Virus record (IMG/VR): IMGVR_UViG_2695420699_000008
Location: 1-10,753 of that record
DNA: 10,753 nt
Strand: one strand, 5' to 3'
Source: a virus
Lineage: Duplodnaviria; Heunggongvirae; Uroviricota; Caudoviricetes
Below, in pieces: positions 3,001 through 9,000 of this stretch; position 1 is the stretch's first letter; each line of letters starts with the position of its first letter. Position numbers: made by a program.

Positions 3001-6000
3001 GCCAATTAAATTCTGGTCCTTACAATATCAACCTGAAGATTCTTATCTTGTGCTGATTGATAAATCACAAACCTTTTACTACCTGCATTGAAAGAAGTAG
3101 ACAAAACCAGACAATTATCATAGCGAGCAAGAACATAATACCAACCATCATTATAATTAATCATTTCATATTCTTTCTTAAACTGCGGTTTGTAATATCC
3201 TGTCAGAAATGAAAAAAGCCAGAAATATGCCACAAAAGCAATCATCACAATCTCAAAAAAATGTTTTTTTATAAATGGCTTATCATAGAAGCATGATACC
3301 GATAAAAATCGCCCATAAGATCTTATCGAAATTGTAACCGCCAGCGCAATCGCTGCTGACAGTAGCAAAAGAGGTACCTGAATCTTCTGTCTCAATATAG
3401 AAAACTCAATAATTGCCGGCACAAACAATAATTCCACAGCAAAATAAAGGCGAAATACATTTAGCTCTTGCATAGAATGTTTTCTTTTCACTGCGAAAAA
3501 GAATACAACACCAATACCCCAACCGATAAGAAATATAGCAATGACGATAACTGCAAAAAATAAACTTCTGGCAACATCATCAACACCTGCACCTACAATC
3601 CACCATGGGAAGCCGTAGTAAAAAGAAGTACCCCATCCATAGAAATAAGCACTCCCCCATCCAAGGCATCCCATGTAGGCAATAAAAAGTGAAGAACTCC
3701 TGAGCAGCGCACCATCCTTCATAACCACCCCAATACAAGATGATAACATTGGCTTACAACTCATAACAAAAGCAATTCAATGCCGTCAAGAGGTTACAGG
3801 CTAAAAAAACTCTATTACATTGCAGTCAGCATGTTTACTACACAAATACAATTCAGAGCATAAAAACTACTCGGCGGCAGGTTATTGAGACTCATCAATG
3901 ACATGTAAAAAACGCCCATTATTGGTGTCAAGTTTCCCCAAAGTTATTCAAAAAGTCAATATTATGCCGTTAATATGTTGCCATCCGTGGCAATCATGGC
4001 GCTAACGTGTGATCGCATTCAAAATGTTGTCTGCGATTGACTCTTCCTTGTGGCATTGCACAACCAGAGCGTCATACAGCGGCTTAACAGTGCGTGACCA
4101 GGTGGGTTGGGTAAGGTTTGGGATTAGCATCGTCACAGCGCGATATGCGGCGCTTGCTGGCATTCTTGAATAACCGACGCCTTTACATCTTCCGCACTCT
4201 TTCTCAGCAACTATCCCCCACTGCTCTGTTTTGGCTATATCAACCGCACGGCCTGTACCGTGGCAATCTCTGCATCTTGCGCCCGGCGTAGCGGCACTAC
4301 GGCAATAATCCGCATAAGCGAATGTTGCGAGCACTTGCAGTACCTTTGCCTTAGTATTTCCTTCGAGCTTTGCCACACCACGGTATTTCCCCGATACCTT
4401 GTGTGCAAATTGCATCAGATAGTTGATAGCCTTTTGTTTGTCGTTCTGGCTGAGTTCATGCTTACCGCAGAATGCAGCCATTCCGAATCCGGCTTGTGAT
4501 TGCGCCATCCCCATAGCAGCCATCACATCAGTACCGGAAAGAGAGTCAGAAGCCGTAGCCCGTGGTGAGTCGCTCATCATCGGGCTTTTTGGCGAATGAA
4601 ATTTAGCTACGCTTTCGAGTCTCATGCGCCTTCTCCCTGTACCTGAATCAATGTGAGATTTCCGCAGAACACTGCGCCGGTATCGATATACATCTGGTTG
4701 GCAAATTTGAGTGGTTTCACTGCTTGCGTATGACCAAAGATGAACGTGTCCGCGCCTTTGATTTCTTTCACGATCCCGTCTTGTGAGTTGCTGATTCGTT
4801 CGCGGTTCCAGATTACCTGCTGATGATCAACTGGCTTTCCAAACTCGTATTTATCACAAGGATAATCGGCGTGGCAGATGACATATTTTTTTCCTTTACT
4901 CACCAGTTCGATGATTAACGGAAGTTCATCTGCTTTATGGGCAAGAGCTTTAGCCAGAATTTCTTTGTCGTAATCGAGATTAAAGAACCAGCCACCGCCA
5001 TTAAGCAGCCAGTGATTGACGTTTCCACGCTCTGATAAGCCATCAATCATCATTTGCTCATGGTTTCCACGTACAGCTCTGAACCAGGGGAATGTGATTA
5101 ATTCCAGGCATTCTACGTTCTCTGTACCGCGATCAACCAAATCGCCCACCGAGATAAGCAGGTCTTTTTTGGTGTCGAATCCTATCGTCTCCAGTTTTTT
5201 CATCAGGTTCGTGTAGCATCCGTGCAGATCGCCAACTACCCAAATATTTCGGTATTTGCTGCCATCAATTCTTTCGTAGATATTCATGCAACCTCACTTC
5301 TGCTGTTTCGCAGTTTTTTAAGTTTCTGTTGATACTCCGCCTTGATGGCCCTGCACTCTTCGACAGTCCAGCGATAGCGGTTATGGTTTGATTCGATTTC
5401 CTCTACTGCTTCCTGCCCGATGCGGCTAATCAGTTCGACGCGATACGGAACGAGATTTCCGCTTTTGTGCTGGTTGCACACCACGCATTGCTTGTGAATA
5501 TTGCGTTCATCAAATCGGAGTTGAGGTGCCGCAGCAGTTGTCCGGTAATGTCCGGCATCCCACTGAGCAGACGTGAGCGTTCCGCACGAGATACATGGTA
5601 AGTCGCGGTCTCTTTCTCTGATGAAGGCGTTTACGGCTTGTTGGGCTTGTTTAATCCAGTAACTGCGGGGCTTTAAGGCGAGTTTTCGAATCTTAAGTTT
5701 ATCTTTCTGTTTCTGCTCCTCTCGTCGTCGTTTCTTCTCTGCTGCTTTTTCCGCTTTTTCGCGTTCTTTACTTCGTCGTTCGAGTGCTATCTTGGTTTCA
5801 CAAATCTCATTACACCAATATTGATTTTGATATTTTGGTATAAACCATTCATTGCAACATTTACATTTCCTTCGATAGATTCGCATAAGTGCTCCTTTCG
5901 TTGCCGGAAAAATCACCGTAATACTTATCTCGGGCTTCTTCAGCAACTAGTACCGCTAACTCCAGATCATCAAAGCATCCGAAGTGTTTACTCTTGCCAT

Positions 6001-9000
6001 GGAATCCTAGCCTAACATTCCATTTTTTCTGTCGTTTGTGCCAAGTAACCCCTCTGCAACCTGATTTGCTATTCTTTCGGATCCTTATATTTCTTGAATT
6101 TTCTATTGGCAGGCATTCTCTTAAATTTTCTGGCCTATTGTCGGTCCTAATTCCATTAACGTGGTCAATTTGACCAGCAGGCCAACGATTATGAGTTATG
6201 TAAAAAACTAAGACGTGAGTTTTATATCTACGCCCATCTATCATGATCATTGAATAACCGTTGGAATCAAAAGTTCCAGCAACACTATTTAATGCTATCC
6301 TTCCCTGAGTGGGAACTTTCCATCTAAATACCCCGGTAGATTTATCGAAACTTAGTAACTCAAATATCCTTTTAACAGTTAAATCTTCTCTTTTACGGTT
6401 ACATCGTCTTCGCGCTGGTTTAGCCATCGCCTTCTTCCTCCGTAATGGTTTTCTGAATTTGGCCACCTGAACAGAGCTCACCAAAGCTATGGATGTCGGT
6501 ATTTCCACAATACCAAGATGGCGAAAATAACTGCATGATAAGCCTCAGGGAAAAGGGAAGACACTACCCCCGATAATTCAGAAACAAATCGAAATACATG
6601 AACTAAAGAAAAATCACAACAAATAGAAATAGAAATAGAAATAGAAATAGAAATAGAAATAGAAATAGAAATAGAAATATTAAAACAGACCACCACATTC
6701 CTGATGTCATACTCACTAAACAATTTTTCGACAACATGGTAGCTCATAGCACGTTATCGTGTAGACACCCTCTGCTACGTATTCGGTGTTCAGTGCAATA
6801 TCTACAAATACTGGAAAAATCTAAAATCGAGGCAAGTTTTTAGTGATAACTATAGTTAGACTATATTGACGACCTGATGTGCTGTATGTAATAACTAACA
6901 AAAAATATTTTCCATGGGATTTTTTATTTTAATGAAATGCAAAATATTTTTATCAATAGTTAGTATTATGGAAAACCATTAATTCAGGAGGAAACTTGAT
7001 TCCAAATTCAACTTCAAATAAAGGTTATGTATGCATTGACATGCAGTGTTCGTCAACCTCTGAACCAACAGCTTCTACCTCCAGCAACCGGAGTATTAAA
7101 TTAGCCGCTTCCACAAATGTATATCCGATAACAAGAAACGACTCCGAGCTCACTCTGAACGATTTTCTTGATAATAGCTCTTCTACGTCATCATTGGACT
7201 ACATTAATGAATTGGGTTCTCAACTGACGTTAAATGATTTTCTTGACAACATAAAGACAAATGAGGTGGATAGAACATGTACGGATGTGGTAATTAATAT
7301 CCCACAAGAGATACAAACAAATACACAGGAAAATGATTTGTTATTATCCGATAAAAATAATTCAATATGCATTGAAATCGATGAAAGAATTACAAAAATC
7401 CTAACATGCAAGCAAAAATATCAACTAGACAGCATCATTCATGAAATTATACCAAAAGAGAATGAGAGTGCAGAAACTGTTCTCCATCTTATGAGAGTTC
7501 TGAACGATCAATATCATCAGGTATATAATCAGTCAGGATGTTTTTATAAAGCCTATATGGCCATACACAATAAAATCGAACAGATACTTCCATATGCGTT
7601 CAGAGCCGGAGGCGGAATCAGCATTCACTTGCTCATACAGGCATTATTTTTTAATGGCGACTATAACAAATCACCTTCACAGTCTCAACAACCATCTTTA
7701 TATACATCACCTTCTCCAACAATAAATACAGAAGCATTCTTAAGTAATGTATTATCACTAGATATAACCCAGGTACGCATACTTGGTGATTTACTATCAG
7801 CAACTTTATTTCATGCACCAACAATATTCTATCAATATCCTAAACTAATAGATGAAGTTAAGTATTGTATAAGTAATAAAAAAATAACAGGTTCGGTTAT
7901 AGCACGATTTACTCTATGTTTAACAAGTACATTACTAACCATGTCACCACTGTTAATGCTTAATGGAGCAGTTAAAACAGGTAGCATAGTAAGAACTATA
8001 GGTAGGGGAGTGAGTTATGCTGATATACCATTGGCCTTAGCTATATTAGGTGACTCATGGTATAAAGCTTATAAACATGGTTCTTCTGATAACCCAAATT
8101 CTGCTCAGAGATTTATATCGCAAGAAGCGGCCTTTAAAACCACCCAGCGGGTATTAACACAAGGATTAAGTCTGATGTCCTCTTTATCGGGAGCAATCAT
8201 GCGCTCTCTTGAGAAAGGCACACCACCACAAATGATGTCTTTATTCATCGTAAACATACTAAATCTATTATTTCATCAAAATCCATATGAAGGGGCATCA
8301 GCAAGTGCTAATGCTTTGAAAAGATCAACTTACTCCCATAATCCGGACATACTAAATACTCAGGCAATAGCTCTTTGTGTTGACCTCCAGCATACAAAAA
8401 ATATAACCATGCCACTTTTCAAAACAAAAGACAGGATATCTTACGCATTCAATGGACAAAGAACATCCCCAGAAGACCAAAAACAAATACTGAAAGAAGT
8501 TATAAACTCCTGTACCCAAGGAGAAAGAGCCATTTTAAATACATCACAATCAGAAACATGCAAACATAAAATCGATGAGATTTATGAAAAAAGATTCTCA
8601 GAAACAGAACTAAATACATTACCAAACGAAATGAAAAATTTCTTGATATTTTTGAACAAAACTCATGAGAAAGATATTTCGCGTTTAAGCATTGGTAACG
8701 AAGTTAATGAAAAAATAATTGCAGTTATAGTCAAGACGTTAGCATATAGAGAGTCTATGTTGTGTTAGACTTTAACTCTACATTGATATAACATTAGCCA
8801 AATATTCAACAGTGTATGCGACCAAACACCAACATGTCGCATACATATACAATTTGAATATTTAATTATATTTACTTAATGTATTTCTATAAAAGCAAAT
8901 TACAAACTCACAACAAAAAACCTCATAACACATTAACAATCAATTCTTTTCATCTTTATAAATTCTCATATCAGGCTTGCACCCGATAAACCGACGAAAA

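Follow-up and report, generated by a model that had tools for sequence, protein, structure and literature searches.

We analyzed a stretch of 10,753 nucleotides (nt) from a tailed phage (Caudoviricetes; IMG/VR record IMGVR_UViG_2695420699_000008, positions 1 to 10,753), hereafter called the window, in which a gene for an HNH-type endonuclease lies at the 5′ end of the phage gene ninG. The genes of the window are all on the minus strand and come in the order ninB, a Dam methylase gene, ninE, an AT-rich island, the HNH/ninG region, ninI (a phosphatase gene), Q, and the lysis genes. The HNH/ninG region is made up of the following features, given with the type of evidence on which each was delineated. 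ORF stands for open reading frame and aa for amino acids.

6436..6441, minus strand: Shine-Dalgarno (SD) sequence GGAGGA of lambda-type ninG, now serving the HNH ORF (sequence read).
6399..6427, minus strand: borrowed ninG start of 29 nt, ATGGCTAAACCAGCGCGAAGACGATGTAA, i.e., the ATG and codons for MAKPARRRC followed by AA, fused in frame to the body of the HNH ORF (identity with lambda ninG).
5861..6427, minus strand: ORF of 188 aa for an endonuclease with an HNH_3 domain and a predicted AP2 fold, ATG at 6427-6425 and stop codon TAA at 5863-5861 (Pfam, PHROG, profile, and predicted structure).
5803..6398, minus strand: replacement block of 596 nt, comprising HNH codons 10-188 and the new SD, ATG, and diverged codons 1-29 of ninG (comparison with empty sites, composition).
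5892..5897, minus strand: new ninG SD sequence AAGGAG, located within the HNH ORF near its 3′ terminus (sequence read).
5803..5886, minus strand: diverged, AT-rich substitute 5′ end of ninG, residues 1-29 (composition and protein alignment).
5284..5886, minus strand: restarted ninG (rap) ORF of 200 aa (Pfam NinG, E = 6e-84).

The SD sequence GGAGGA is unchanged in phages lambda, HK544, and S107 and in every invaded copy, and at 6441-6436 it lies within the final ~17 nt of ninF-derived sequence left in the window. The lambda-identical stretch around the HNH start opens at about 6440-6444, and the 29 nt of the borrowed ninG start are a 100% match to lambda in 60/60 related copies. A first-pass annotation of this DNA had proposed that the N terminus of lambda NinG and its native ribosome-binding site drive an AT-rich HNH/AP2 ORF. 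All of these elements are indeed present on the minus strand, with minor changes in position; for instance, the ATG is at 6427 and not at 6430. At the other end of the ORF, a spacer of 5 nt separates AAGGAG from the new ninG ATG (5886-5884). The HNH stop codon had been described as overlapping this new AAGGAG-ATG; the two ORFs do overlap, by 26 nt, but the stop is located 23 nt past the ATG, in ninG codons 8-9, rather than on the ATG itself. The domain matches and the arrangement are not a product of chance, because the domain E values are strong and the layout recurs unchanged in hundreds of genomes.

The boundaries of the insertion were defined by direct string comparison with the ninG alleles of lambda, the coliphage HK544, and the Salmonella phage S107. 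These empty sites have the same flanks as the window and contain 64 nt in place of its 596 nt, and the empty site of O157 strain 135 likewise has identical flanks. The 64-nt stretch of the empty alleles, AAACGA...CCAGAG (AAACGATGAATGCC...CCAGAG), corresponds to ninG nt 30-93. The shared left flank extends from the SD sequence to TGTAA, with the left junction between 6399 and 6398, and the shared right flank begins with TGTGGAAC, lambda-like DNA being found again from TGTG at 5802. In terms of ninG positions, the left junction, which follows nt 29, and the HNH stop, at nt 26 of the new gene, are homologous (...TGTAA), and therefore the cassette behaves as a point insertion with spare ninG codons 1-9. 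Removal of 6398..5861 would give back an in-frame ninG. The single-nucleotide polymorphisms (SNPs) located 5′ of the ATG (CAATGTAC, GACG) are present also in the uninvaded phages S107 and HK544, and thus they do not mark a left co-conversion tract. A weak, imperfect direct repeat of 20 nt was reported over the left junction at 6369-6409 (AGACGATGTAACCGTAAAAG / AGAAGATTTAACTGTTAAAAG on the minus strand; 80% match, Tandem Repeats Finder [TRF] score of 52); it could be a relic of junction formation or a chance occurrence in AT-rich DNA. A repeat search at the junctions found nothing convincing and did not recover this TRF repeat. Similarly, a consensus scan for an internal promoter or terminator in the cassette yielded nothing above shuffle expectation.

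The 604-nt stretch between 6398 and 5795, which is essentially the replaced block, has a GC content of 37.6%, compared with 48.9% for the remainder of ninG and 52% for the borrowed 5′ piece. The uninterrupted state was found in 418/422 phage records matching this ninG and spans lambda, 21, 434, the HK phages, SfI, and P22-like phages; an uninterrupted ninF-ninG junction is also carried by 798 of 5,426 complete Escherichia coli genomes. As the uninterrupted state is common and the base composition of the block is foreign, an ancestral origin of the arrangement was rejected. Its earlier description as a derived insertion, as opposed to the ancestral lambdoid state, is thus well founded, and the insertion is very probably that of a gene of a homing endonuclease family.

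Analyses of the HNH protein support this family assignment. The protein matches Pfam HNH_3 (PF13392) above threshold (42.7 bits for a cutoff of 24.8; E = 4e-11) and PHROG 99, "HNH endonuclease" (E = 1e-71). Residues 124-172 match Pfam AP2 (PF00847) with 22.1 bits, under the cutoff of 33.3 (E = 1.8e-4), and a precomputed PF00847 match exists for several homologues. The catalytic motif D-H...N...N(L) is complete in the protein of the window (QIDHVNGIRTDNRPENLRE). An alignment of homologues shows no variation at D88, H89, E100, N101, or L102 and hardly any at N97. A profile built from 34 homologues matched I-HmuI (1U3E), a homing endonuclease encoded in an intron, with E = 1.7e-7, and it gave a weak match to plant AP2/ERF proteins. 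The AlphaFold2 model of the protein has a predicted local distance difference test score (pLDDT) of 88, and its first Protein Data Bank match in Foldseek, relevant to a putative beta-beta-alpha-metal fold, was also I-HmuI (probability of 0.98, E = 9e-3, template modeling [TM] score of 0.35 over the whole chain). The C-terminal domain of the model is composed of strands 127-130, 135-142, and 145-152 and helix 155-173. It superimposes on AtERF1 (1GCC) with a root mean square deviation of 1.4 Å over 51 columns (probability of 1.00, TMt of 0.67) and on the AP2 domain of TEM1 with a deviation of 1.1 Å. The model thereby supports an AP2/ERF fold for this domain, a three-stranded sheet on a helix. 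The association of HNH and AP2 is the architecture of a described homing endonuclease family (Magnani 2004, as reported in PMC10448857). By sequence, and for the AP2 domain by predicted structure, membership of the inserted gene in this family, with an I-HmuI-like HNH domain and an AP2 domain, is supported.

Beyond a cluster of sequences at 99% identity, the nearest relatives of the protein are 40-46% identical. The nearest ones in phages are the products of free-standing genes labeled homing endonuclease, found in the holin-endolysin gap of Jersey-like phages, where they overlap both neighboring genes. About 9 N-terminal and 10 C-terminal residues of the window protein have no counterpart in homologues, and both ends have low pLDDT values, as expected of residues gained from the invaded gene. 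The additional residues are NinG-derived codons at the N terminus and a read-through into the new ninG start at the C terminus.

The restarted NinG, a candidate NinG/Rap junction endonuclease, matches Pfam NinG (PF05766) with 281 bits (E = 6e-84) over profile positions 5-192 of 193, and it is identical to lambda NinG between residue 31 and residue ~160. Residues 1-29 are divergent and AT-rich at the DNA level, lambda sequence coming back from 5802, in agreement with the diverged N terminus of about 30 residues of the first-pass annotation. Within this N terminus, C8, C11, W14, F15, P17, N21, Q22, W24, C25, and C29 are invariant relative to lambda. The DNA stretch 5886-5795, which includes the tract, has a GC content of 29%, and 62/92 nt are equal to lambda. 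Next to the tract, a G-to-A change at 5798 that replaces CGTK by CETK in NinG (G30E) is private to the window; lambda and the 59 other aligned copies that reach this position have G.

The portion of the diverged tract located 3′ of the HNH stop (5860-5803) is invariably linked to the HNH gene. Among phage records, the tract occurs in HNH-bearing ones only. A DNA pattern for the tract peptide that tolerates synonymous codons gave 58 matches in IMG/VR and metagenomes; HNH is upstream in 57 of them (57/57 testable), and the remaining one is at a contig end. The seven metagenome matches listed all have the same nucleotide tract. Protein searches with the new NinG N terminus (38-41 aa) returned only itself and relatives at ~55% identity, in a library clustered at 50% identity in which a donor could be hidden. 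The tract had been regarded as a target site rewritten in place. Given its many residue differences from lambda and an AT richness similar to that of the HNH gene, the tract looks more like imported DNA that arrived with that gene, and it is possibly the 5′ end of the donor's own ninG.

A survey of genomes for the same insertion, as had been suggested, showed that it is widespread. The block is 99-100% identical in 537/5,426 complete E. coli genomes. The same block is present in the Shiga toxin 1 (Stx1) phages AU6Stx1 and SH2026Stx1, in 56 IMG/VR contigs and 7 metagenome contigs, and in Salmonella Infantis and Rubislaw, including circular phage-like records of 30-42 kb. The latter Salmonella records are deposited as "plasmids" (CP148756-CP148769, OX345037, and OX345447 in PLSDB; 30-42 kb) and contain a complete lambdoid/P22-like early region with a helicase gene, nin genes, Q, and a holin gene; they are probably circular phage genomes and not plasmids. 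The label assigned to the gene by the Prokaryotic Genome Annotation Pipeline is already "HNH endonuclease," beside "recombination protein NinG." A literature search found no description of this particular ninG insertion.

The block occurs in three upstream contexts and with several ninG haplotypes and is 99-100% identical throughout. The AT-rich island is upstream of it in 519/537 HNH-bearing E. coli genomes and in 40/61 aligned copies, and other copies, e.g., those of ETEC1718, E2863, and Salmonella, have an ordinary ninF upstream. As the upstream neighbor varies, the island represents a separate event. On the other side, several ninG haplotypes start ≤6 nt from the right edge of the tract. 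The Salmonella copy has 2 mismatches over 629 nt of the block versus 26 mismatches over the next 514 nt, and its ninF side is ~80% identical. As far as can be judged from sequence comparisons, the block is present in different genomic backgrounds in the way that a free-standing homing endonuclease gene would be. The HNH ORF is intact in 59/60 full-length copies, and the catalytic motif is intact in 57/60. Other decay variants were seen as well, including a 104-aa HNH remnant (P0003) and ninG copies in which a stop codon comes too early or an internal part is deleted (L131). In another copy (P0044), NinG is frameshifted and the switch to lambda-type sequence occurs earlier, after ...KYQNQ.

The best explanation of these observations, and in our opinion a probable one, is that a free-standing HNH+AP2 homing gene, in the form of a compact cassette, invaded a lambda-type ninG at its 5′ end. 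The sequence shows that the cassette replaced ninG nt 30-93 (64 nt). The HNH ORF is in frame with the ninG SD, the ATG, and the first 9 codons and would be translated from the ninG initiation site; in the ninF context, its translation would be coupled to that of ninF via the ATGGCTAA overlap. The last ~40 nt of the cassette contain AAGGAG-N5-ATG, which would restart ninG with a substitute AT-rich N terminus. As this N terminus keeps the conserved Cys, Trp, Phe, and Pro residues, both proteins can come from the pR delayed-early transcript.

The enzyme would then nick or cut uninvaded ninG near its 5′ end, most plausibly inside the conserved 64-nt stretch that has no counterpart in the invaded allele. 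Indeed, invaded and empty alleles differ only by the interruption at nt 29 and by this conserved stretch. Repair of the break from an invaded phage or prophage would copy the cassette, with resolution where homology resumes, i.e., at ninG nt 29 on the left edge and at TGTGGAAC on the right edge. The invaded allele would be refractory, its site being both interrupted and replaced; the immunity that had been proposed for it is putative. The nearest mechanistic precedent is MobE of phage T4, an HNH enzyme whose free-standing gene has no promoter and relies on upstream transcription, and which nicks the 5′ region of the adjacent nrdB (PMC2790892). The further statement that the target is directly inferable is too strong. 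The cleavage sites of free-standing endonucleases are often distant from the place of insertion and can be hundreds of base pairs away (PMC2988022), and therefore the target is constrained rather than directly inferable. Homing would explain why many E. coli and Salmonella phages of the lambdoid and P22-like types have the block in near-unchanged form, and on the available sequences we lean toward spread of the block through its own nuclease acting on ninG.

Several observations weigh against this explanation. One pair of junctions is common to all copies, and thus one insertion followed by ordinary recombination and clonal expansion of enterohemorrhagic E. coli (EHEC) could give the same picture. 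If the gene had been located upstream of an intact ninG in the donor, simple copying would not explain why the left junction is inside ninG. Constraint on the HNH ORF appears only mild, its variable sites being synonymous in 11 cases and nonsynonymous in 11; two copies have substitutions of the motif Asn residues (N97T or N101S), and one HNH gene is frameshifted (L065). Neither the donor lineage nor intermediate relatives were found in our searches, identity falling from 99% to 46%. Among 5.8 billion proteins, the best HNH homologues beyond the 99% cluster were 44-46% identical, and a search of the GTDB species genomes gave a distant Planctomycetota match only. Finally, invaded and uninvaded lambda-type ninG genes are found in one chromosome in CP028632.1 and in CP018239.1, the uninvaded copy of CP028632.1 having 1 SNP relative to lambda in the putative target. 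This coexistence is only weak evidence against homing, since in lysogens the nin region is under repression. The uninvaded ninF-ninG junction of CP028632.1 (E. coli strain 135, NZ_CP028632.1 3739566-3742720) is part of a decayed prophage remnant with bet and Q pseudogenes, beside lpxR.

The block might instead be a passive mosaic module that arose by one illegitimate recombination and then moved by Red/RecA homologous exchange via the highly conserved ninF/ninG flanks, as well as through the clonal growth of EHEC and Salmonella lineages, the nuclease being inactive or unrelated to ninG. Lambdoid nin regions are classic mosaics, and the flanks are >93% identical among phages. The identical junctions, the persistence of uninvaded alleles beside the element, the 11:11 ratio, and the catalytic-motif variants fit such a history, as do the 519/537 E. 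coli genomes with the same island and HNH haplotype, many of which belong to the heavily sampled O157, O26, and O111 lineages. Passive spread accounts less well for the intactness of the ORF (59/60) and of its motif (57/60), for a block far more conserved across two host genera than the DNA a few hundred nucleotides away, and for haplotype switches within 6 nt of the right edge of the tract, which fit resolution of break repair at the first homology. Moreover, the relatives of the protein are annotated as homing endonucleases and belong to a described homing family. We regard passive spread as rather unlikely, though a serious contender. A quite improbable alternative, which overlaps with homing instead of excluding it, is that the nuclease has been domesticated for the benefit of the phage, for marker exclusion of rival lambdoid phages, for recombination with NinG/Rap, or as a DNA-binding regulator, and does not persist through its own propagation. 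The gene belongs to the nin region, which is related to recombination, it is co-translated from the start of ninG, and most copies are intact; there are also precedents in the marker exclusion driven by homing endonucleases in T-even phages (PMC2988022) and in the co-option of AP2 domains as regulators (PMC10448857). However, most lambdoid phages do not have the HNH gene, it has no conserved partner or co-varying gene, and its ORF is weakly constrained.

It is barely conceivable, lastly, that the HNH-ninG arrangement is ancestral and was lost in lambda, or that the block is a group I intron, removed from the ninG mRNA by splicing and containing an ORF in frame. The in-frame ninG that deletion of 6398..5861 restores, and a closest solved structure, I-HmuI, that is intron encoded, would be in keeping with these ideas. 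They are contradicted by the uninterrupted state of ninG from lambda to the P22-like phages and in the 798 E. coli genomes, by the foreign base composition of the block, and by the presence of an SD, an ATG, and a substitute N terminus that would be needless if splicing occurred. An Rfam cmscan of 5200-7000 on both strands returned 0 matches at E ≤ 1, group I introns included, and the candidate group I intron was rejected on this ground. As there is no Rfam match, the HNH ORF has its own stop, and the downstream ninG has its own SD and ATG, the cassette, by its sequence features, is not housed in an intron or intein.

The surroundings of the cassette also depart from the lambda arrangement. 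The AT-rich island (6445-9271; 34% GC) takes the place of ninF between ninE and the ninG SD. An ORF of 590 aa on the opposite strand of the island (6996-8768) has no Pfam match and matches only PHROG 9230, of unknown function. No island was seen beside an uninvaded ninG in the rows sampled, and E2863 has the same ninB-dam-ninE arm with ninF instead of the island. The island also contains a perfect tandem hexanucleotide, (AAATAG)x9.8, at 6621-6679, within a doubtful ORF of 86 aa that reads ISISIS; related IMG/VR loci have between 3 and 16 copies of AAATAG, indicating a behavior similar to that of variable-number tandem repeats. Downstream of ninG, ninH is absent and the ninG stop overlaps the ninI start (5284-5290), whereas lambda, ETEC1718, and E2863 have ninH between the two genes. 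Between Q and the lysis genes, an interval that is the slot of the stx genes in Stx phages, an ORF of 252 aa (3006-3764) has no Pfam match and matches PHROG 1521, of unknown function; its product is hydrophobic and putatively membrane-like.

In AU6Stx1 (locus positions 5055-8597) and SH2026Stx1, the distance from the HNH gene to the downstream Q is ~0.8 kb, and that to stxA1 is 1.7 kb. If the enzyme is active, co-conversion could reach the toxin module and bias the exchange of medically relevant modules. One may speculate that the enzyme, active at prophage induction, drives gene conversion among lambdoid phages that reside together in, or co-infect, EHEC and Salmonella, dragging linked DNA and shaping the spread of virulence modules, but we consider this scenario improbable. 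Were it true, the DNA dragged along would be the AT-rich island with its 590-aa ORF just upstream and, in the two Stx1 phages, the Q-stx region ~0.8-1.7 kb downstream.

To our knowledge, nearly all work on homing endonuclease genes has dealt with virulent T-even phages. The ninG insertion provides a clean and very common case in temperate lambdoid phages, for which lambda genetics makes homing, co-conversion, and target immunity testable. It would also represent a low-cost mode of entry into a coding region, in which the initiation site of the host gene is captured and a spare SD, ATG, and N terminus are supplied. Regarding annotation, the first 9 residues of the "HNH endonuclease" and the odd N terminus of NinG stem from one insertion event.

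Among the known systems closest to this one are the free-standing HNH genes of T-even phages ("intronless homing"), in particular T4 mobE. Both are promoterless genes located in or between conserved phage genes and depend on upstream transcription, and in both the likely target is the 5′ region of the neighboring gene, as MobE nicks the 5′ end of nrdB (PMC2790892). T-even free-standing HNH genes are inherited along with flanking polymorphisms of the donor (PMC2790892; PMC2988022). In contrast, the putative endonuclease gene described here is found in temperate lambdoid and P22-like phages and prophages, it codes for HNH_3 and AP2 domains rather than the C-terminal regions of Mob proteins, and its ORF is fused in frame to the start of the invaded gene. 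Insertion of an endonuclease gene within a coding region, with the host gene remaining expressible via a new downstream start, is also known for mobE in nrdA of Aeh1, mobA in the gene 39/60 region of T4, and seg43 in gene 43 of phage 25 (PMC2988022). In those cases, the host protein became two functional polypeptides, whereas in the window no more than 9 N-terminal codons remain upstream, as part of the endonuclease ORF that captured them; NinG is encoded again in full downstream with a substitute N terminus, and therefore no subunit reassembly is needed.

In-frame capture of an N terminus has a precedent in gene 31 of the P22-like Salmonella phage epsilon34, in which the N terminus of eaE is fused to an HNH homing endonuclease (PMC2629481). 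That locus is different, being part of the early left operon, the relatives of its endonuclease are from Gram-positive phages, and a regenerated start or a substitute 5′ end for the invaded gene is not described there. With the HNH+AP2 family (Magnani et al. 2004; "IPA-HNH" of ICP1, Barth et al. 2023), the protein of the window shares an N-terminal I-HmuI-like HNH domain, a C-terminal domain of predicted AP2 fold, and a patchy presence among related phages, but it is ≤46% identical to any other protein found. I-HmuI itself (1U3E) is encoded in an intron and has another C-terminal DNA-binding region. The closest relatives, 40-44% identical over about 160 aa, are encoded by Jersey-like phages of Salmonella and E. 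coli (S102 orf58, DUEC01, and SHAK7858), and they too are compact cassettes that overlap both neighbors, by 13-23 nt. The Jersey-like genes differ in that they belong to virulent phages, occupy another insertion site, have their own start codons, and are devoid of the ~9 N-terminal and ~10 C-terminal residues. Free-standing HNH homing genes with co-conversion tracts, gene-splitting insertions, and in-frame capture of an N terminus, as in epsilon34, are thus known already; the combination of a captured start, a spare N terminus for the host gene, and a wide spread among EHEC and Salmonella prophages may be new as a described case.

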